Assembly (NCBI GenBank): GCA_034722055.1
Contig: JAYENL010000330.1
Span: 1-16,731 of the forward strand
Length of the DNA stretch: 16,731 nt
Direction: 5' to 3'
Source: Armatimonadota bacterium
Lineage (GTDB): Bacteria; Armatimonadota; Zipacnadia; Zipacnadales; UBA5352
Position numbers and translations under genes: made by a program. This document shows positions 490 through 16,638 of this stretch, piece after piece. Each line of letters opens with the position of its first letter. Within the stretch, counting starts at the first letter, position 1. The notes under the pieces are model-generated. The model saw nothing but the letters and a program-made list of their open reading frames with translations. It was not told the origin of the DNA and did no database searches.

Positions 490-518
490 GTGACAGCCAT
501 GCCGCGGTGCGCTATGAT
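490..518 (+). promoter_or_regulatory. Putative sigma70-type promoter for the 559..3933 gene
   Basis: GTGACA (490-495), 17 nt, TATGAT (513-518); lies upstream of SD GGAGG at 547-551. Confidence 0.6.
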
Positions 519-558
519 GCCCGAAAGGTATGCACCGATCGCGGCTGGAGGTACGACG

Positions 559-3500
559 ATGGTTCGCTTTGAGCTTGCCTGCCTGCTGCTGGCCCTCACA
601 TCCATGACCGCCCTCGCCGACGACTTCGTGGTCATCCGCGCCCAGGCGCCGGACACGCCCCTCCAACACATCCCGCTGCTGGTGCAGACTGACGCCGAGG
701 GCCTGCGCCAGGCCACCGGTTTCGACGAGCTGCCGGAAGGGGTGGTCTATGCGGATGAGCCCGCGCGGGATCGCCCGCTGGCGGCGCAGGTGAACGTGCT
801 TCCCGACGGGACGGTGCAGATCGCCGCGCTGGTGGCAGCCGATCCGCCGGGCGAGCGCGAGATTCGGGTCTGGTTGCAGAACCCGCCGGGCACGCCGCCG
901 GAGGCGCCTGCGGCACTGTCGGCCGCCCAGCGGGGCGACGTCATCCGGGTGGAGAACCTGCCCTACACCATCGTCCACGACTCCGCTGTCAACGCCGGGC
1001 TGCTGTCCGCCATCGAGCTGCCGGGGCTGATTTTCCAGCCCGCGCTCAACGATCGGGTCTATGACAAGGACGGCCTGGGCGGCTTCTCCCTGCGCCATGA
1101 TCCCGAGCCGGAGATGCAGCTTAGCGCCGCGGGGCCGCTCTACGCCGAGGTGCGCGTCGCGGCTCGCTACCTGCGCGAGGATGGCAGTGCCCCTGAGGGA
1201 TCGCCCCGAGCCACCTACACCATTCGCTACTGGGCCGGGCTGCCCGTCTTCCAGGTGGAGGCCGACGTTCGCCAGGACCGGAGCTTCGCGTGGGAGGAGC
1301 TGCACCTGCTGGAGCTTCACCACCAGGAGCCGGTCTTCGAGAAGTTCGCCATCAACGATCCGGGTGGGGTGCAGGAGTTCGATGACGACGCGGAGGGCGA
1401 TCGCGGCGGGGAGTGGGGCGCGCTGCTGACCGACGAGGGCCAGACCGTGGGCATCGTGGGCTCGGTCATCGTCTACGACGGCCTCGGCGAGTACGGCCGC
1501 TACCTGCACGGGCCCTGGCGGTCGTGGTCTGACACCTCCGCCGAGCTGAGCCGCTGGGTCTATGCCTCCTCCCAACCCGGGGCGCTGGAGACGCTGGATG
1601 CGCTGGCGGCGGGTGGTGTCTCGGCCCGCCGGGCCTGGCTGATGACCCAGGGGCTGGCCGAGGCCATGGATGGCCTGCGCTCGAGGCTTAGCGCCCGTGG
1701 CGAGGCGGCTGACCCGCAGGTCACCTGGCGGCTGTCGCTGATCGAGAGCGCGGCGGTGGCGGGTGCGCCTCAGGCCCAACTGCTGCAGGTGGCTCGCAGG
1801 CTGGAGCAGGCGATGGATGCCGGCCGCGCCTTCCAGCATGTGCCGGAGCTTCCCGGCGGCAAGCTGCTCATGGCCGGCGACGGCCGACTCGGCATCGGCA
1901 TCCGGCTCACCGACGCCGGGGTGGAGCTGGCGAGCCTCTACGACATGGTCACGCGGCGCGAGATGCTGGCGGGGCCGTGCGACATCTTCCGCGTGACGCT
2001 GGGCGACCGGGACGGCGAGGCCACCGAGCTGGGCTCATCCGCCGGCTGGGGGGAGTGGAGCGCGCAGGCGGCGAGCGCGCGGGATGAGGGCAGCATCACG
2101 GCGACCTTCGCCTCGCCGCTGGAGCTGCCGGCCGGCGACATGACCGCGGAGGTCACCTGTGAGATCGCCGGCGGCGCGTCCCGGTGGCGCATCAGGATCG
2201 AGAATGCCGGCCCCTGGAGCATCGACCGGGTGGCCATGCCGGTTCTCTCCGCGGGCCCGCTGGGCGACGGCGCCGACGACATGCTCTACGTCCCGCACGG
2301 CTTCGGCCGCGGCTTCGAGAGTCCGGCTGCAGCCGGCCCCCGCTACCGGGGCTACTACCCATCCGGCTCCTGCGCCCTGCCTATGCTGGCGGTCACCGAC
2401 CCTCGCGGCGGGCTCTACGTGGCGGCGCATGACGCCCATGCCTCCACCAGGGAGATGGTCACCGGCGCGGGCTCGGACGGGGGCGTGGCGATGAGCGTTG
2501 AGACGCCGGCGCCGAACGCCTCCGTCACCGGCAACGAGTTCAGCACCTCCGGCGAGGTCGTCATCGCCCGCGTCGATGGCGGGTGGTACCCGGCCTCGCA
2601 GATGTACCGCCGCTGGGTGCAGGAGAACGCCCGGTGGTGGCCGAGCGGGGATCCGGACTACGGTCGCGACGACCGCCCGGCGTGGCTGAACGACGTCGCC
2701 GCCTGGATCCTCGACGGCGGCGGTCCGGATGGGGTGGTGGAGCAGGCCAGGGCCTTCGCGGAGTATATGGACCTGCCCGTGGCCGTGCACTGGTACAACT
2801 GGCACCAGATCCCGTTCGATAACGACTACCCCCACTACTTCCCCACCAAGGAGGGCATCCGCGAGGGCGTGGCGGAGCTGCAGGAGGCCGGGGTGCGCAT
2901 CGTGCCCTACATCAACGGTCGGCTGTGGGACACCGACACCGAGAGCTTCCAGGAGACCGCCCATCAGTACTGCACCCGCGACCGGGAGGGCGGGCCCTAC
3001 ATCGAGGTCTACGGCTCCGGCGAGGAGCTCACGCCCATGTGCATCCACACCCAGTTCTGGCGCGATACGCTGCACGAGATCGTCATGCGGCTGATGACCG
3101 ACGTGGGCGTGGACGGGGTGTACATGGATCAGATCGCCGCCGCCCGCCCCCGGCTGTGCTACGATCGCGACCACGGACATCCGCTGGCCGGCGGACACTG
3201 GTGGGTGGACGGCTACTGGCAGCTTCTGGGGCGACTCCAGGAGGACATCGCTCAGGTCAGCCCCGAGAAGATGCTCACCACCGAGTCCAATGCCGAGGCC
3301 TACGCTCGCTTCTTCGACACCTACCTGATGTGCAACTCGCTCGGCGACGGCCTGGTGCCGCTCTTCCCGGCGGTCTACGGGAGCAAGATCCTGGGCTTCG
3401 GCCGCTACATGAGCGCGGAGGACTGGGACGCGCCACAGTCGCTGGCGCAGAAGCAGGGCCAGCTCTTCGTGTGGGGCACGCAACTGTGGTGGAGCCGGCC

Positions 3501-3933
3501 GGACGTGATCGAGCACGAGATCGCCGGACCGTGGCTGCGGGAGCTGGCACGGTTGCGCTTCCAGGTGCGCGAGTTCTTCAACGCGGGCCGGATGCTGGCG
3601 CCGCCGGTGCTTGAGGGCAATGACGCCACGGTCACCGCCGACTGGCACCGAGGGGAGCTGGAGGCCACCACGCCGGCGGTGCTGGCCTCGGCCTGGACCG
3701 TCGCCGACGGCCGCATGCTGGTGCCCATGGTGAACTGCTCCGAGGAGCCGCAGAGGGTCGTGCTGCGCCTCGAGGCCGCCAACTGGGAGCTCTCCGGGGA
3801 CGCGGCCTTCAGCGTCCGCCGCCTGGGTCCCGAGTCCGAGGAGGACCTCGGCACCTGGCGCGTCGGGAGCGAGCATGACATCAGCCTGGAGGGTCTGCAG
3901 CCTGCGGCCCTGGTTCTGACACCCCAGGAGTGA
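559..3933 (+). CDS. Secreted multidomain protein with a C-terminal DUF6259-like / glycoside hydrolase TIM-barrel-like domain (1124 aa)
   Basis: Long ORF with strong GC3 bias. ATG 559 follows GGAGG 547-551 and gives a signal peptide (MVRFELACLLLALTSMTALA). Motifs HWYNWH..FDNDYPHYFP, VPYING, VDGVYMDQIAA and LTTESNAE resemble DUF6259/GH-like barrels. Family assigned by recognition, not by search. Confidence 0.75.
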   Translation: MVRFELACLLLALTSMTALADDFVVIRAQAPDTPLQHIPLLVQTDAEGLRQATGFDELPEGVVYADEPARDRPLAAQVNVLPDGTVQIAALVAADPPGEREIRVWLQNPPGTPPEAPAALSAAQRGDVIRVENLPYTIVHDSAVNAGLLSAIELPGLIFQPALNDRVYDKDGLGGFSLRHDPEPEMQLSAAGPLYAEVRVAARYLREDGSAPEGSPRATYTIRYWAGLPVFQVEADVRQDRSFAWEELHLLELHHQEPVFEKFAINDPGGVQEFDDDAEGDRGGEWGALLTDEGQTVGIVGSVIVYDGLGEYGRYLHGPWRSWSDTSAELSRWVYASSQPGALETLDALAAGGVSARRAWLMTQGLAEAMDGLRSRLSARGEAADPQVTWRLSLIESAAVAGAPQAQLLQVARRLEQAMDAGRAFQHVPELPGGKLLMAGDGRLGIGIRLTDAGVELASLYDMVTRREMLAGPCDIFRVTLGDRDGEATELGSSAGWGEWSAQAASARDEGSITATFASPLELPAGDMTAEVTCEIAGGASRWRIRIENAGPWSIDRVAMPVLSAGPLGDGADDMLYVPHGFGRGFESPAAAGPRYRGYYPSGSCALPMLAVTDPRGGLYVAAHDAHASTREMVTGAGSDGGVAMSVETPAPNASVTGNEFSTSGEVVIARVDGGWYPASQMYRRWVQENARWWPSGDPDYGRDDRPAWLNDVAAWILDGGGPDGVVEQARAFAEYMDLPVAVHWYNWHQIPFDNDYPHYFPTKEGIREGVAELQEAGVRIVPYINGRLWDTDTESFQETAHQYCTRDREGGPYIEVYGSGEELTPMCIHTQFWRDTLHEIVMRLMTDVGVDGVYMDQIAAARPRLCYDRDHGHPLAGGHWWVDGYWQLLGRLQEDIAQVSPEKMLTTESNAEAYARFFDTYLMCNSLGDGLVPLFPAVYGSKILGFGRYMSAEDWDAPQSLAQKQGQLFVWGTQLWWSRPDVIEHEIAGPWLRELARLRFQVREFFNAGRMLAPPVLEGNDATVTADWHRGELEATTPAVLASAWTVADGRMLVPMVNCSEEPQRVVLRLEAANWELSGDAAFSVRRLGPESEEDLGTWRVGSEHDISLEGLQPAALVLTPQE

Positions 3934-3947
3934 GGGAGGACGACGCC

Positions 3948-5237
3948 GTGCGCCTCGCGCTACTGATGATCCCCGGCCTGCTGCTGTGCATCTCGTCCGG
4001 GACGGGGGCGGCGACCTACTACGCCTCGCCCGGCGGCGGGGGCAACGGTGCCAGCGAGCAGAGCCCGTTCCAGGTCGCTGACTTCTGGGAGGTGGCCCAG
4101 CCGGGCGATACGCTGCTGCTGGTGGACGGGACGTACACCGGCGAGCGGTCCATGATCAACACGCCCGAGGGGACCGCGGGAAGCGCCGACGCGCCCATTA
4201 CCGTCCGGGCGCTGAACGACGGGGGGGCGCTCATCGACGGTGAGGGCAGGCTCTACCCGGTCCAGCTCTACAAGTGCCGGCACGTGCACGTTGAGGGCAT
4301 CAACGCCTGCCGGTCGAAGGCCACCGTTGTCAGCGTGAGCCGCTCCAGCCACTGCGCCGTCCGGCGCATCTGCGGCTGGGACGCTCACGACGGCAACACC
4401 AACATCTTCGGGGTGCACTACAGCGATCACACCCTGGTGGAGGACTGCGCCGGATGGGGGATCGCGCGCAAGACCTACTCCTGCTCGCAGGATGGCAACT
4501 ACACCACCTTCCGGCGCTGCTGGGGCCGGTGGGAGGGCTGCCATGCGGTCGGCCCCAAGATGGTCTTCACCTGCGCCTACAACAGCCACCACAACCTCTT
4601 CGAGAACTGCATCGGCACCTGGGACGGGCGGCAGATGCGAGAGGAGTACACCGTCCTCGGCTATGACGGCGAGCCCTTCACCAACTGGGGCAGCCGGCCC
4701 AAGGAGCCCGTGCACATGACCGACTACGGGGTCGATCAGCCCTACGGCATCTTCGGCATCGACACTCGCCCGGATCCCGGGGTGCGCCTGCTCGGCTGCG
4801 TCGCCTACCGCCTGCCCGACCAGCGCGTGGTGGACTATATCGGCATGTTCTTCGTCCAACGCACCGCCGAGGCCCCCGGGCTGATCCGCGACTGCGTGGC
4901 CTACGCGGACCCGCAGGCTCCACCCGTCCCCGCCTTCAACATCGCGAACATGGCCGGCGGCGGCCTCACCGGGGTCTCGTCGGCTGAGAGCGCTTTCACC
5001 GGTGAGGTCTCACCGGATGCTGACCTGCGCGAGACTCCCACGGGGCTGGTGGCGGAGACCGGCTGTGTCCTGGTGAACCCGGAGGGCGCCACGGTCAGCC
5101 GTCGGTACGTTGATGGCGAGCTGACCGATCAGCCGCTGTGGCCGTGGCCGATGGACGGTCGCATCGAGGTGCTCATTGGGGTGAACGTGACGGAGACCGT
5201 GTTGCGACTCGGTGGCGGCAGCGCCCCCGGGCCATGA
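3948..5237 (+). CDS. Secreted right-handed parallel beta-helix protein (pectin-lyase fold) (429 aa)
   Basis: GTG 3948 follows GGAGG 3935-3939. Signal peptide, then ATYYASPGG..G..P and PGDTLLLVDGTY, both typical N-terminal beta-helix motifs. Repeating xxxC beta-coils (VEDC, FRRC, FENC, IRDC). Starts 14 nt after the upstream stop, so probably co-transcribed. Confidence 0.75.
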   Translation: MRLALLMIPGLLLCISSGTGAATYYASPGGGGNGASEQSPFQVADFWEVAQPGDTLLLVDGTYTGERSMINTPEGTAGSADAPITVRALNDGGALIDGEGRLYPVQLYKCRHVHVEGINACRSKATVVSVSRSSHCAVRRICGWDAHDGNTNIFGVHYSDHTLVEDCAGWGIARKTYSCSQDGNYTTFRRCWGRWEGCHAVGPKMVFTCAYNSHHNLFENCIGTWDGRQMREEYTVLGYDGEPFTNWGSRPKEPVHMTDYGVDQPYGIFGIDTRPDPGVRLLGCVAYRLPDQRVVDYIGMFFVQRTAEAPGLIRDCVAYADPQAPPVPAFNIANMAGGGLTGVSSAESAFTGEVSPDADLRETPTGLVAETGCVLVNPEGATVSRRYVDGELTDQPLWPWPMDGRIEVLIGVNVTETVLRLGGGSAPGP

Positions 5238-5261
5238 CGCGGTGACAAAAAAACTGTCTTC

Positions 5262-5290
5262 TTGAAGGACTTTCCGAGCGGGGCGAGAAT
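5262..5290 (+). promoter_or_regulatory. Putative sigma70-type promoter for the porin gene
   Basis: TTGAAG (5262-5267), 17 nt, GAGAAT (5285-5290), with an upstream A-tract at 5247-5253. Confidence 0.45.
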
Positions 5291-5430
5291 TGAGGTGAAG
5301 CCGTCGCGCAACCAAACTATGTGGCCTTTGTCTAAGAGGCACTGTGGGCTGGGCTCGTTCGGTTGCCGCTCCTCAGGAGGCAGCCGGACAGGGGAACACG
5401 CCACGAACTCGCTTCAGGGAGGGTACGACC

Positions 5431-6441
5431 ATGACTCGCCTTGTAGTCTGCATGGTGCTGATCGCCATGCTCGTGACCGCCGCTACTGCCGTGGCTCAGG
5501 AGGGCGTGGAGGAGGAGTCCTGGTACGACCGGGTCTCCATGTCCGGGTACTTCCACGCTCGCTACATCGACACCGATCAGGAGGGTGAGTACGACACCTT
5601 CGACTTCCGCCGCATGTATGTAACTATCCGGGGCGAGATGGATCGGACAACGGGGATCATCACCTTCTCCCGCGTCGGGCCAAACGACCCCAACATCGAC
5701 CTCTACAACGCGTTCGTGGACTATAAGATCGGCGACCGCTACGCCATCCAGTTCGGCCAGGTGCCGACCTGGTTCGGATTGGAGGCCTGGGAGGGGTCAT
5801 CGGTCCGGGACACCCTCGAGCGCGCCAAGATCCTCGAGGGCGGCCCAGGCTTCTACTTCGCAGGCGCCCCCGACCGGGGCATCTGGCTCCGCCGCGCCCC
5901 GACGCCCGAGACCTGGGAGCCGCTGATCATCTTCGGCGTCTGGAACGGCCAGTTCCGCAGTGATGACGCCAACGATGACAAGAATGTGTCACTCGACCTC
6001 AAGTGGAACGCCCCCTGGGGCCAGTTCGGCGCATCGTGGTTCGACGGCACCTACGTGGACGGAACTGGCAATGAGGCGGACCGGGGTGCTGTCGATCTCT
6101 ACGTGCGGCTCTTCCCCGCACCCTGGGGCGTTCAGGCCGAGTGGGCCGATGGTGAGCTGCTGGGAGCCGACCGCGATGGATACTACCTCCATGGCAGCTA
6201 CCTGATGCCGAACGGGACCGACAAGGTCTACGGCCGCTACCAGGAGTTCAACGCTGACACCGCTATGACGAGCACCAACTACGAGGCCTGGACTCTCGGC
6301 TGGGCCCGCGAGCTTGACGAGAACAACGAGATCACCGTCGAGTACACCGATGGTGACTGGACGTCCAGCGGTGGTGAGGATCAGAGCTCCGGAGGAAGCG
6401 ACGACATGTTCGGCGTGCAGTGGCAGTACGCCTTCCGGTAG
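5431..6441 (+). CDS. Outer-membrane beta-barrel porin (OprO/OprP-like) (336 aa)
   Basis: ATG 5431 follows GGAGG 5418-5422. Signal peptide ends AVA-Q. Motifs FDFRRMYVTIRG, LYNAFVDY and IQFGQ..FGLE; alternating amphipathic strands; C-terminal VQWQYAF Bam-type signature. Confidence 0.75.
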   Translation: MTRLVVCMVLIAMLVTAATAVAQEGVEEESWYDRVSMSGYFHARYIDTDQEGEYDTFDFRRMYVTIRGEMDRTTGIITFSRVGPNDPNIDLYNAFVDYKIGDRYAIQFGQVPTWFGLEAWEGSSVRDTLERAKILEGGPGFYFAGAPDRGIWLRRAPTPETWEPLIIFGVWNGQFRSDDANDDKNVSLDLKWNAPWGQFGASWFDGTYVDGTGNEADRGAVDLYVRLFPAPWGVQAEWADGELLGADRDGYYLHGSYLMPNGTDKVYGRYQEFNADTAMTSTNYEAWTLGWARELDENNEITVEYTDGDWTSSGGEDQSSGGSDDMFGVQWQYAFR

Positions 6442-6465
6442 ACGACACCTGGCTGTGGCGCGAGA

Positions 6466-6495
6466 AAGGGGCAGGCCCGGCCGGGCCTGCCCCTT
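6466..6495. terminator. Probable bidirectional terminator between the convergent porin and pdxS genes
   Basis: Perfect 30-bp palindrome AAGGGGCAGGCCCGG|CCGGGCCTGCCCCTT; U-tracts are short on both strands. Confidence 0.65.
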
Positions 6496-6560
6496 GTCGC
6501 TGTCTGTCGAAGGTGCTCGCCGCCGGCCTGTAGCCTCCGGCATTGAGCGTGTGGCCCCGT

Positions 6561-7448
6561 TCACCACCCGCGCGTGGCGAGCCGCTCCTCCTCGGCGAGG
6601 GTGCGGACGTCGATGCCCTCCATGGCCGCGCCCTCGAGCCCGCGGCAGGCGTTGGCAACCTCGACGGGGTCCTCGTAGTAGGTGGTGGCGTGCACGATGG
6701 CACGCGCCCGGGCGGGCGGGTCCTCGGACTTGAAGATGCCGGAGCCCACGAAGACGCTCTCGGCGCCGAGCTGCATCATCAGGGCGGCGTCCGCCGGGGT
6801 GGCGATGCCGCCGGCCGCGAAGTTCGGGACCGGCAGCGCCCCCTCCTCGGAGACCCGCTTGACCAGGTCATACGGTGCCCCCATGTTCTTGGCCTCGGTC
6901 ATCAGCTCATCGTCGCGCAGGCCCGTGAGGTGCTTGATGTGCGTCTGGACCGCGCGCATGTGGCGGGTGGCCTCGACGATGTTGCCGGAGCCGGCCTCGC
7001 CCTTGGTGCGGATCAGCGCGGCGCCCTCCCCGATGCGGCGCAGCGCCTCGGGCAGCTCGGTGCAGCCGCATACGAAGGGGACCTTGAAGGCGTGCTTGTC
7101 GATGTGGAAGCTCTCGTCGGCGGGGGTGAGCACCTCGCTCTCGTCGATGAAGTCCACCCCGATGGCCTCCAGCACCTGAGCCTCCGCGAAGTGCCCGATG
7201 CGGGCCTTGGCCATCACCGGGATGGTGACGGCCTCCATGATTCCGTCGATGATGCGCAGGTCGGCCATGCGCGCCACGCCGCCCTCCTTGCGGATGTCGG
7301 CGGGGACGCGCTCCAGAGCCATCACGGCCACGGCGCCGGCATCCTCGGCGATCTTGGCCTGCTCGGCGCTGGTGACGTCCATGATGACGCCGCCGCGCAG
7401 CATCTCCGCGAGCCCTACTTTGGTTCGCCAGGTGGATGTCTCTGCCAT
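6561..7448 (-). CDS. pdxS: Pyridoxal 5'-phosphate synthase lyase subunit PdxS (295 aa)
   Basis: Signature motifs [50 protein letters not shown] and [27 protein letters not shown] at 7462-7458. Confidence 0.98.
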
Positions 7449-7895: not shown

Positions 7896-8019
7896 ACTGT
7901 GTGTCCGCGCCAATTCCCCTCATTAAACGCGGAGTGCGCCTGCGCCGCGCGTACTCCGGTTTAATCCTGTACGCACGACCGCCCTTCTTTGTCCGACCGA
8001 TGTGAGGAGGCTTTCGGGC

Positions 8020-11000
8020 ATGGCCCAGGAGCTACCCCGTATTCCCGAGTCCCGACCGCTGTCGTACGACCCTGCGGAGCTGCCCGACCTGATCAGCATC
8101 CAGACGGAGTCCTACCAGTGGTTCTGCCGGGAGGGGCTCAGGGAGCTGTTCGACAGCTTCAGCCCCATCGAGGACTACACGGGCAACATCGCCCTGGAGT
8201 TCCTCGACTACACCATCGGTGAGCCGTCGCGCTCGATGATCGAGTGTCGGGAGCGCGACGCCACCTACGAGGCCCCCCTGTACGCCAAGGTCCGGCTCAT
8301 CAACAAGGAGATCCCGGAGATCACCGAGTCCGAGGTCTACCTCGGCGAGCTGCCGATCATGACGGACCGGGGGAAGTTCATCATCAACGGCGCCAAGCGG
8401 GTAGTGATCAGCCAGCTCGCCCGCTCGCCGGGGGTCTACTTCTCGGACACCATCGATTCCGCCGGGCGCGTGCGGTTCTCGGCGAAGGTCATCCCCTCCG
8501 ACGGGGCATGGCTGGAGATCGACACCGCTGCCAACGGCGTCATCAGCGTCAAGCTGGGACAGACGCGCAAGTTCGCGGTCACCGCGCTGCTGCGGGCCCT
8601 GCAGTGGCTGGAGACCGAGCCCAGCGACGAGGTGCCACCGACGGGGACCGACGAGGAGATCCTGCACGCCTTCGGCGAGAAGGAGACGGCGCAGGTCAAG
8701 AGCCTCATCAAACGCATCGAGGAGCGGGAGCACGACGCCCTGCCGGGAATCGAGGCCCACGAGGAGTATTTCGCGACCCGCGACCTGGTCGATGAGGACG
8801 GGGAGATCATCGCGGAGGCGTGGGAGGCGCTGGACATCGACGCCCTCAAGACGCTCCGCGCTCTGGGCGTCGAGAAGCTGACGGTGATCCGGGCGGCCTT
8901 CGAGCTGCGGGCCACGCTGGAGGATGACGAGTCCGGCACGGCGGAGCAGGGGCTGCTGGAGGTCTACCGCAAGATCCGCCCCGGCGACCCGCCCACGGTG
9001 GAGAGCGCGGAGTCGCTGCTGCACAGCTACTTCTTCGACGTGAAGCGCTACGACCTCTCGCGGGTGGGCCGCTACAAGATCAACCGGAAGCTGGGCGTTT
9101 CGGTGGAGCCGGACGAGCGCACGCTTACCCGCGAGGACGTCGTGGCCATGGTGCGCTACCTGCTGGGGCTGTCGCGCGAGGAGGGGGAGGTGGACGACAT
9201 CGACCATCTGCAGAACAAGCGCGTCCGGGCGGTGGGCGAGCTGCTGCAGAGCCAACTGCGCACGGGCTTCATGCGCACCGAGCGGGTGGCCAAGGAGCGC
9301 ATGACGTCGATGGACCCCGAGGAGATGGTGCCGGGCAACGTCATCTCCACCAAGCCCATCTCGGCCGCGATCAACAGCTTCTTCGGCTCCGGGCAGCTCT
9401 CGCAGTTCATGGACGAGGTCAACCCGCTGGCGGAGCTGGCGCACACTCGGCGCGTCTCGGCGCTGGGGCCGGGCGGTCTGAGCAAGCAGAGCGCCAAGCT
9501 CGAGGTGCGCGACGTGCATCACTCGCACTACGGCCGCATCTGCCCGGTGCAGAGTCCGGAGGGCCAGCTCGTGGGGCTGACCGGCTACCTGGCCCTGCAC
9601 GCCCGGCTCAACGAGTTCGGCTTCATCCAGACGCCCTACCGGAAGCTGGCCGATGGCCGGGTCACCGACGAGGTGAAGTACATGACGGCGGACGAGGAGG
9701 AGGAGCACATCATCGCCTCCGCCTCGGCGCTGCGCGACGGCGACGGGAGGATCGAGGGGCCCATCACCTGCCGCTATCAGGGCGGCTTTGTCACGGTGCA
9801 GCCGGAGGCAGTGGAGTACATCGATTACTCGGCCTCGCAGGTCTTCTCGGTCTCCACGGGCCTCATCCCCTTCCTGGAGCACGACGACGCGGTGCGGGCG
9901 CTGGCGGGCTCGAACATGCAGCGGCAGGCGGTGCCGCTGATCAAGACCGAGGCCCCGTGGGTGCGCAGCGGCATGGAGGGCCGCGCCGCACGGGACTCGG
10001 GGGTGGTGGTGGTGGCCCCGAAGGACGGACGGGTGGTGGAGGCCAGCGCCGACCGCATGGTGGTGGAGTACGTTGACGGCACCACCGGGGAGTATCCGCT
10101 GGAGAACTTCATGCGGACCAACATGGGCACGTGCGTGACCCAGAAGCGGCTGGTGTCGGAGGGGGATCGGGTCAAGGCCGGCCAGCCGCTGGCCGACGGC
10201 CCGTCCACCGACCGGGGGAACCTGGCACTGGGCCGGAACCTGCGCGTGGCATTCGTGCCGTGGGAGGGCTACAACTTCGAGGACTCCATCCTCATCAGCG
10301 AGCGCCTCCTGCACGATGACGTGCTGACCTCGATTCATATCGAGAAGTACGAGTGCGAGGCCCGCGACACCAAGCTGGGCCCCGAGGAGATCACCCGGGA
10401 CATTCCCAACGTGGGCGACGACGCGCTGGCCGACCTGGATGCCACCGGGATCGTGCGGGTCGGCGCCGAGGTGCGCGCCGAGGACATCCTGGTGGGTAAG
10501 GTGGCGCCCAAGGGCAAGTCGGAGCTGACGGCGGAGGAGAAGCTGGTCATCGCCATCTTCGGCAAGAAGGCCGAGGAGATGCGCGATGTCTCGTTGCGGG
10601 TGCCTCATGGCGAGAAGGGCGTGGTTATCGACACCAAGATCTTCTCCCGGCACAAGTACGAGTGCAAGGCCTGCGGGGCGGTGCACGACTTCGGGAAGGC
10701 GCCCGAGCACGAGCGGTGTCCGCGCTGCGACGGGAAGCTGGAGAAGCTGCCCGGCGATGAGCTGAAGCCCGGCGTGAACCAGCTCGTGCGTGTCTTCGTG
10801 GCGCAGCGGCGCAAGATCATGGTGGGCGATAAGCTCACCGGCCGGCACGGGAACAAGGGCGTCATCTCCAAGATCCTGCCCGTCGAGGACATGCCCTACA
10901 CGGCCGATGGCCGGCCGGTGGACATCTGCCTCAACCCGCTGACGGTGCCGTCGCGCATGAACATCGGTCAGGTGCTGGAGACGCACCTGGGGCTTATCGC

Positions 11001-11826
11001 TGATGAGTATGGGGAGGAGTTCGTGACGCCCATCTTTGAGGGCATCACCCCTGAGCAGATCATGCGGGGCATGGAGGCGCTGTCCACCAAGCAGAGGTGC
11101 GAGGCCCTGGTGTCCTACGCTGACTGCGAGCTGAATCACTTCGGCGAGATCCTGGACGCGAATGAGCTGGATGCTGAGACGCCCGAGGAGCTGGAGGAGC
11201 AGATCGTGGAGCTGCTCTCCGAACACGACAAGGAGGACCTGGAGGAGCTGGCGGAGTGGCTGGGGGCGAGCCCCTACGCATGGAGCCGGGCGTCCGAGGA
11301 GCGGCCCTACGAGCTGATCGTGGAGGCCGCTCGGGAGAACATTGAGGCTCGGGCGCAGCTCGAGCCGGAGAGCGGCCGCACCGTCCTGTATGACGGCCGC
11401 ACCGGGGAGCCCTTCAACCAGCCGGTGACGGTGGGGTACATGTACATATTGAAGCTGCTGCAGCTCGTGGAGGACAAGATCCACGCCCGCTCCACAGGGC
11501 CCTACTCGCTGATCACCCAGCAGCCGCTGGGCGGGAAGGCCCAGTTCGGCGGCCAGCGGTTCGGGGAGATGGAGGTCTGGGCGCTGGAGGCCTACGGCGC
11601 GGCGAACTGCCTGCAGGAGATGCTGACGGTCAAGTCCGACGACGTCGCGGGGCGAGTGGCCACCTATGAGGCCATCGTCAAGGACCAGAACATGGAGGAG
11701 CCGGGAGTCCCGGAGGCCTTCAAGATCCTGGTCAACGAGATGCGGGCGCTGGCTCTGGACGTCGAGATCGAGGACCGCGAGGGCAACGCCGTGGACATTA
11801 GCTACGATACCGGCGACTTGCGGTGA
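8020..11826 (+). CDS. rpoB: DNA-directed RNA polymerase subunit beta (1268 aa)
   Basis: ATG 8020 follows AGGAGG 8005-8010. Motifs [48 protein letters not shown] and [18 protein letters not shown]. Confidence 0.99.
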
Positions 11827-11856
11827 CGAGCCGGGCCGGTGTGGCTGGCAAGCGAT

Positions 11857-11931
11857 GGCGTGCGGGCGGGGGCGCCCGCACCACGGAACGACAGACGGCA
11901 AACGGCGTGCGGACGAGGGCGTCCGCACCAC
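11857..11931 (-). repeat. Two tandem family A REP-like hairpins in the rpoB-rpoC spacer (period 47)
   Basis: Minus strand: GTGG-tgcggacg-ccct-cgtccgca-cgcc (11931-11904) and GTGG-tgcgggcg-cccc-cgcccgca-cgcc (11884-11857); same geometry and flanks as 160-187. Confidence 0.85.
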
Positions 11932-11970
11932 GCATACGGCAGCAGAAACGACATCAGGAGGCGATCGAAC

Positions 11971-16638
<4,668 letters not shown>

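Follow-up and report, generated by a model that had tools for sequence, protein, structure and literature searches.

A predicted zinc ribbon in the RNA polymerase beta flap of Armatimonadota is retained where its cysteines are lost

When a small module with metal ligands is built into an essential enzyme, is it the metal or the module that selection holds on to? This question is raised by an Armatimonadota contig (JAYENL010000330.1, assembly GCA_034722055.1), analysed here as a window of 16,731 nucleotides, that is, the whole stretch on its forward strand. Its rpoB gene encodes, at the flap's base in the RNA polymerase (RNAP) beta subunit, a 34-residue insert with two CxxC knuckles (Table 1). 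We found that the cysteines are dispensable and the insert is not, which is a new observation. The region had a match in 289 of 301 genomes from the phylum, and the site was read in 185 of these, which represent 44 of 45 family codes and were picked to cover these codes and the low-scoring matches, their proportions not being those of a random sample; four cysteines (Cys4) occur in 128 of them, three cysteines and a histidine (Cys3His) in 6, no intact ligand set in 50, and the insert itself is missing from 1. One more genome (G100), additional to the 185 and read at a contig end, is Cys4.

The four-cysteine observation itself is confirmed. The rpoB reading frame (8002-11826) is uninterrupted, the insert is flanked by FSR and GDEL, and the gene is single-copy in the window's genome, where tblastn gives one match. 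Cysteine makes up 0.8% of the remaining RpoB, and the chance expectation is about 6e-5 motifs of this type; since, in addition, the four cysteines recur through the phylum, the motif is not a chance one. The GC content at third codon positions (GC3) is 0.97 in the insert and 0.94 in the whole gene, with host-like codon use, and this agreement argues that the insert was not recently acquired.

The loss of cysteines is concentrated in particular families, with cysteine-less forms in 9 of 9 genomes of f11, 13 of 13 of f14, 14 of 16 of f17, 4 of the 10 native genes of f20, 7 of 7 of f33 and 2 of 2 of f37 (one of the 50 sequences, from G076, looked poor and was dropped from this and later counts, leaving 49). 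The ligand positions are occupied by S-I-C-T in f17, C-T-S-T in f37, D-G-S-W in f33, D-G-S-D in f20 and G-D-x-E/Q in f14, and family f11 retains C-x-x-T with 16 residues added; the ligands were thus replaced in at least five different ways, and a tree of the flanking RpoB, with the insert columns taken out, requires at least 10 state changes. The earlier note had made its metal-binding idea depend on conservation of the cysteines in relatives, and they are indeed not conserved in six family codes, although in the window's own class all 30 genomes read are Cys4. What persists in the cysteine-less inserts is the module: 40 of 49 have 33-34 residues, all 49 open with the aromatic-basic-aromatic motif, 44 have the F-S-K-like motif and 42 have G-x-L. 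In the 98-row alignment, K893 (85 rows), L907 (86) and K879 (83) match the cysteines (78-81) in conservation.

Within f17 and f20, the cysteine-less and Cys4 members are interleaved in the tree. Approximately unbiased (AU) tests against one cysteine-less clade gave p 0.010 and p 0.0006 for f17 and p 0.004 for f20, the groups having been chosen after a first tree had been seen. One simple loss per family is rejected by these tests for both, and regain, parallel loss and recombination remain as alternatives between which they do not distinguish. In f17, the cysteine-less motif is near-identical on either side of a Cys4 member that resembles a Cys4 outgroup; therefore, recombination of alleles is as plausible as regain.

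Two expansions were seen beside these substitutions. The 16 residues added in f11 (e.g. L132, L135-L138) are helix-like and lie inside the first knuckle in 9 of 9 genomes, and G215 (L145) has 24 extra residues between the knuckles.

A similar history is known from the ribosome. The C+/C- zinc ribbons of S4, L31, L33, S14 and other ribosomal proteins likewise lost their ligands repeatedly, with the domain retained in an information-processing protein (C+/C- forms of ribosomal proteins are covered in PMC3087516). They differ in that both forms may occur as paralogues in one genome, with a swap under zinc regulation, whereas the window's genome, the only one examined for second copies, has one rpoB.

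The insert is old and phylum-defining, being present in 184 of the 185 genomes read and across 44 family codes. The nearest named loci, at 85-97% over the region, are labelled Armatimonadota, Ca. Zipacnadia or candidate division WS1, and 80 of 278 loci were kept, of which 55 have the insert (labelled as Armatimonadota-type or just as “bacterium”) and 25, all Bacillota, do not. No insert was found outside the phylum in three range searches, namely a pattern scan, an insert profile search and a profile search of cluster representatives, the genome-by-genome sampling covering Armatimonadota and not sister phyla. The insert profile gave 238 hits among 5.8 billion proteins, with 7999 candidates scored; all 120 matches listed are RpoB, and the labels among them are Armatimonadota, bar one “bacterium” and one cyanobacterial label, the latter on an insert of the f17 type. 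Among the best 150 of 1.84 billion cluster representatives, 9 have the insert and are nearest to members of the phylum, the short turn is found in 73, a long insert in 51 and a short cysteine-free stretch like a truncated beta-i9 in 2, while 15 were unparsed, one of which was inspected and has no insert. A single insertion in the Armatimonadota ancestor is what this distribution suggests.

The site of insertion is not a new one. In alignments with solved RpoBs from Bacillota and Actinomycetota, both flanks of the insert are matched and a gap as long as the insert lies between them, and the span at the site is 42 residues in the 25 Bacillota loci and 74 in the window RpoB. The earlier note gives Firmicutes and Actinobacteria only a few residues here. 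Its placement of the insert at the beta-i9 (SI2) position is likewise borne out, as in pairwise alignment with E. coli RpoB the flanks fall at about R936 and G1039, and E. coli beta-i9 comprises residues 938-1042 (Opalka 2010, PMC2939025). The insertion site is thus common to the Armatimonadota insert and E. coli beta-i9 (also SI2 or beta-DR2), which occurs in Proteobacteria, Bacteroidetes, Acidobacteria and others (PMC2939025). The occupants are different: beta-i9 has 105-143 residues, is acidic, contains two long helices and binds no metal (PMC2939025), whereas the Armatimonadota insert has 34 residues, bears cysteines and is all-beta in its model, so that neither the two long ladder helices nor the length of at least 105 residues by which beta-i9 is recognised was found. 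Because the predicted fold is a helix-free ribbon, we regard the insert as a second occupant of the site and no homologue of beta-i9. One permissive site has been used independently by both, and a second, unrelated occupant suggests that the site matters.

The flap was modelled by AlphaFold2 with the 98-row alignment, with a mean predicted local distance difference test score (pLDDT) of 85.9 and values of 85-92 over the insert. The modelled insert is free of helices, its strands span 878-882, 888-891 and 906-910, and the flap strand continues directly into the first ribbon strand; for the insert alone, the same strands are predicted (pLDDT 83). Two CxxC knuckles and, in the prediction, short antiparallel strands without a helix are features of zinc ribbons, and the structural neighbours are zinc ribbons or rubredoxins (MCM with the best Z of 4.2, Nob1, TFIIE, rubredoxin), so the insert is modelled as a three-stranded ribbon of the rubredoxin type. 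In the window protein, the four cysteines are most likely the ligands of one structural Zn2+. A Cys3His ligand set is compatible with zinc, and its occurrence in all 6 of the f35 family's genomes favours this metal. On these grounds (the models, the cysteine motif and the ribbon-like neighbours), the proposal of a ribbon fold with probable metal binding, made before any modelling, is supported.

The insert does not agree with the BEAN and HABAS insertional domains, which have helix-plus-two-strand brackets or a four-stranded sheet with a GD-box motif, as the model has three short strands with knuckles. The clamp zinc site of the archaeal and eukaryotic Rpo2/Rpb2 subunit and subunit P/Rpb12 are also zinc ribbons on or near the second RNAP subunit, and the ribbon of P/Rpb12 is located beside the flap and wall. 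The Rpo2 site lies near the C-terminus and the Armatimonadota insert in the flap; matches of the insert profile to 36ro_B (1058-1083) and 4qiw_P are weak (E 0.08-0.5) and reflect the shared knuckles.

We suppose that the ribbon entered a turn on the surface of the beta flap's base once, in the phylum ancestor, where its four cysteines would hold one structural Zn2+ and tie the three short strands together. These strands would extend the flap's own strand into a compact knob, and selection would act on this knob rather than on the metal: where the ligands were lost, knuckles of Ser, Thr, Asp or Gly or hydrophobic residues took their place, while the K-Y, F-S-K and G-x-L residues stayed and the insert kept its length. 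A protein is probably the contact of the knob, and it may be another part of RNAP, a transcription factor or the trailing ribosome. A structural zinc ribbon used as such a contact is, in our judgement, the rather probable reading of the data, and among the options raised by the earlier note, docking is the best remaining one, with a putative partner. As for the site, beta-i9 lies far from nucleic acids and was proposed as a surface for factors not yet identified (PMC2939025), and in some coupled complexes the 30S subunit is touched by the beta-i9 tip (bioRxiv 2020.03.01.972380); what beta-i9 does may serve as a precedent for the site and not as evidence on the Armatimonadota module.

Several observations do not sit easily with selection on the knob. 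In most families, the rate of divergence of the insert is about 1 to 3 times that of the RpoB core (ratios 0.57-3.08), K893 is not invariant and its motif lacks it in all 6 f35 rows, and the fold searches scored low (Z 4.2 at best; no Foldseek match with E <= 0.001), which is usual for 41 residues. In addition, the sole insert-less genome, G139, seems to use a foreign rpoB, provided that the assembly is correct. This gene is of the Deinococcus/Thermus type (1616 bits against Thermus, 1218 against Bacillus), and G277 of the same genus has a normal rpoB; either a foreign gene has replaced the native one in place, or the assembly is chimeric. The gene is located at 8990-12505 on the minus strand of contig G139:C281 (L141), directly ahead of an RpoC typical of the genome's own family.

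Since a purely structural passenger could give the same fast divergence and the same variation at K893, we considered that the insert has no partner and stays fixed because a deletion restoring the turn is rare, its end strands being part of the flap sheet and only foldability being selected. The modelled continuity of flap and ribbon strands, the tolerated additions of 16 and 24 residues in f11 and G215, and the dispensability of E. coli beta-i9, whose deletion at the same site is tolerated in rich but not in minimal medium (PMC2939025), would all fit this explanation. It remains a minor possibility in our view, as there is no clean deletion in 184 native genes from 44 family codes, and the basic K879 and K893 are conserved though folding alone does not obviously need them. 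The idea that the zinc-free forms are under tighter constraint was rejected, their ratios being 0.98-1.92 against 0.57-3.08 with no clear difference.

The knob might alternatively be a basic, aromatic surface for nucleic acid, either DNA or RNA, the latter being the nascent transcript or 16S rRNA in a coupled ribosome. Its mean net charge of +1.9 in Cys4 and +6 in Cys3His forms, the presence of MCM, Nob1 and TFIIE among the top structural neighbours and the reported contact of beta-i9 with the 30S subunit point in this direction; however, the charge of the insert varies from -2 to +6, the site is reported to lie away from nucleic acids in elongation and open complexes (PMC2939025), and a 34-residue knob reaches much less far than a coiled coil of 65 A. 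We therefore hold this alternative to be quite unlikely.

Returning to the knob as a protein contact, the distribution of oxidases bears on why its ligands were lost. A match to the COX1 family (E <= 1e-20) is found in 49 of 49 cysteine-less genomes, 60 of 128 Cys4 and 4 of 6 Cys3His genomes, and at 1e-130 in 41 of 49 cysteine-less against 26 of 128 Cys4 genomes; the window's family has none in 9 genomes, nor has the window's own genome. The family profile (PF00115) is one that we take to include nitric oxide reductases as well. The link between oxidase and ligand loss is not significant when phylogeny is considered, as oxidase differs in only about 1-2 of 8 independent pairs (median p 0.5-1). 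Oxygen as a proven driver of the loss is therefore rejected in spite of the strong raw counts, and it is a permissive correlate of cysteine loss rather than a shown cause. By a published reconstruction, anaerobiosis is ancestral to the phylum, with oxidases acquired in several lineages (PMC11535203), and the window's class is described as anaerobic (PMC10290634). Genome-wide zinc sparing is unsupported too: in five genomes with cysteine-less RpoB, the adenylate kinase lids have four cysteines (3 genomes) or three cysteines and Asp/Glu (2), a sixth giving no lid match, and the C+ form of L31 is found in 3 of 5 genomes with cysteine-less and 4 of 5 with Cys4 inserts, so that cysteine loss in these proteins is mixed and out of step with RpoB.

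The same data concern the proposal, made in the earlier note beside docking, of a redox or metal sensor. We considered such a sensor, possibly with iron in anaerobes, which would tune transcription upon oxidation or demetallation. An oxygen-labile site would give the observed pattern, in which the cysteines are kept wherever a COX1-family gene is absent and lost only where there is an oxidase; the anaerobic habit of the window's class, the rubredoxins among the fold neighbours and a weak match to the rubredoxin-like domain of rubrerythrin (PF21349, 23.1 bits, cut-off 26.5) agree with it as well, that to rubredoxin itself (PF00301, 16.2 bits, cut-off 23) also being below its threshold. Nevertheless, we consider a sensor very improbable. 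Ligands are lost in 50 of the 184 insert-bearing genomes with the insert retained, and since several lineages dropped the cysteines yet kept the module, a structural knob is favoured over a sensor. Moreover, 60 of 128 Cys4 genomes do have a COX1-family gene, a Cys3His variant exists, the independent-pairs result is non-significant, and the site is peripheral, no path from it to the active centre being apparent (PMC2939025).

Where the ribbon came from is less clear. The lid of adenylate kinase is the best working analogue, as this ribbon, too, is an insertion that exists both with zinc and without; in PMC11526920, CCCC and HSDT forms are distinguished, the zinc is structural and the zinc forms are enriched in thermophiles. 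The lid differs in having two more residues between the knuckles and in shutting over ATP in a P-loop kinase, the host of the insert being RpoB. Among PDB sequences, lids are the top matches of the insert profile (5g3z with E 0.0016, 5g3y, 1zin; E 0.0016-0.01). Profile-profile comparison gave 97.5% for lids of the same phylum, 96.8% for FmdB and 67% for the RpoC insert described below; with the cysteines masked, the lid kept 52% (31 columns) and four control ribbons at most 1.2%, and 0 of 150 column shuffles reached the lid value (the HypA control in this test was 1 sequence from 4 loci). FmdB (PF09723, Zn_ribbon_8), HypA and the C-terminal ribbon of rubrerythrin are stand-alone or terminal domains whose likeness collapses under masking. 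In an anchored position-weight test, however, FmdB (mean 5.8, n 14) scored as high as the lids (3.6, n 23), so that lid and FmdB ribbon are tied as candidate donors in that test.

Pfam matches at E <= 0.05 among 63 insert members are 46 to FmdB, 43 to HypA and 28 to ADK_lid (PF05191; best member E 4.7e-07, cut-off 26.6 bits). At this threshold, ADK_lid is not matched by the window insert, which lies under every curated cut-off of the ribbon families (FmdB, HypA, rubrerythrin), and in whole-genome scans the RpoB insert matches ADK_lid in 4 of 30 genomes, always below the cut-off (best 22.5 bits). Structure indicates no single donor, as the fold searches do not put the lid first and the ESM Atlas gave no usable hit. 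A copy of the N-terminal zinc-binding domain of RpoC is rejected, the comparison giving 52% over 14 columns and 0.17% with the cysteines masked. Descent of the insert from an adenylate kinase lid is therefore possible, though doubtful. A longer scenario can be drawn, in which an anaerobic Armatimonadota ancestor captured a lid into RNAP, the lid became a docking surface for a phylum-specific partner, and with oxygen respiration the zinc-to-hydrogen-bond switch known from the lid was replayed at least five times, the forms still being exchanged or reverted within families; we think it unlikely to hold as a whole.

In the literature searched, mostly in the form of search listings and with supplements that may bear on the matter, no paper describes the insert as a zinc ribbon, and to this extent the impression that it was undescribed stands. 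It does not stand for the coordinates, which seem to be given in Table S1 of Alvarez-Carreno 2024 (PMC11515920), where the entries for type “4e” of Armatimonadetes RNAP-beta include 920-956 (AIE86838.1) and 974-1006 (CCW36300.1). The former range is very probably the Armatimonadota insert, judging by a Fimbriimonas sp.-labelled protein that is five residues shorter and has a cysteine-less insert at 915-948; the latter has a suitable length and may be the insert too. That study leaves out insertions of less than 50 residues, and its main text and that of the preprint are without the words “zinc”, “cysteine” and “ribbon”; the ribbon may have gone unrecognised there because the Fimbriimonas-labelled form is cysteine-less.

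By itself, the insert, whose function we infer, leaves the understanding of transcription unchanged. It is of interest since bacterial RNAPs gain regulators at lineage-specific inserts, of which catalogues have skipped those below 50 residues, and since it is a likely metal site on a bacterial beta subunit and a clean molecular signature of a phylum with long-unsettled boundaries. The repeated zinc-free solutions are a more interesting result than the sensor idea: Cys4, Cys3His and at least five zinc-free solutions form a natural series, in a 34-residue fold and a single-copy essential gene, from which it may be learned how and why zinc ligands go.

A second four-cysteine insert is present in RpoC of the window, where alignment to E. 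coli delimits 30 residues. All 37 named loci at class level have it, as do 2 of the 70 genomes handled, both from the window's class; of the remaining RpoCs of the 70, 10 (from four other families) bear in this segment a larger insert rich in cysteine, a single CxxC is present in 1 and none in 57. To judge from its sequence, it has no close relationship to the insert of RpoB, and the window polymerase may carry two extra zinc sites.

Table 1. Features of the rpoB-rpoC region in the window
Feature	Position	Strand	Remarks
rpoB, RNA polymerase beta subunit	8020..11826	+	1268 aa from Met at 8020; open reading frame opens at 8002; Rpb2 domains 1, 2, 3, 45, 6, 7
Zinc-ribbon insert (predicted), base of beta flap, H878-P911	10651..10752	+	In place of the 2-residue turn of Bacillota; Cys codons at 10663, 10672, 10717 and 10726 (translation)
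K879-Y880, first strand	10654..10659	+	K in 83/98 and Y in 78/98 rows; start motif in 49/49 cysteine-less rows
First knuckle, C882-x2-C885	10663..10674	+	Cys in 81/98 and 79/98 rows
F891-G892-K893, (F/Y)-(S/G)-K motif	10690..10698	+	K in 85/98 rows; motif in 44/49 cysteine-less and 99/128 Cys4 rows
Second knuckle, C900-x2-C903	10717..10728	+	Cys in 78/98 and 79/98 rows
G905-x-L907, past second knuckle, start of last strand	10732..10740	+	G in 77/98 and L in 86/98 rows
rpoC, RNA polymerase beta-prime subunit	11839..16638	+	Limits of open reading frame; real start probably further in
Second four-cysteine insert, CxxC-x10-CxxC, in RpoC at E. coli beta-prime 824|825	15025..15114	+	Class-restricted, separate insertion; Cys codons at 15046, 15055, 15088 and 15097

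The larger RpoC insert in the same beta-prime segment belongs to families f10, f24, f26 and f29, where it is acidic, 190-280 residues long and has 3-4 CxxC pairs. Its carriers are L074, L078, L080 and L084 and genomes G002, G018, G032, G058, G071, G095, G142, G187, G204 and G251, and the Hebobacteria-labelled loci group with these families. The N-terminal part of the window RpoC (12390-12680) contains a long glutamate-rich insert, which is probably helical.

In RpoB, family f1 departs from the usual residues at sites close to the active centre that are normally conserved (511-523 and 1148, encoded at about 9550-9590 and 11461 in the window). Where E. coli has H1237, Gln stands in 10 of 10 f1 genomes, and the other families for which the pattern was read have His; the E562/T563 positions are Gln-Ser in 10 of 10 f1 genomes, and N568, I572 and S574 differ in the window protein too. 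In the flap-tip helix (about 10530-10580), two positions are Ile and Lys in most Armatimonadota and Arg and Glu in solved RpoBs and in families f10, f24, f26, f29 and f40; this is the contact for sigma region 4 and NusA.

Upstream of rpoB (490-7448), the window has genes other than the usual rplKAJL cluster; by resemblance, we take them to be two secreted-looking proteins of 1147 and 435 aa, a porin-like protein and a PdxS-like gene on the minus strand. In the non-coding start (144-420), a direct repeat is seen in translation, with one 30-residue reading occurring twice.

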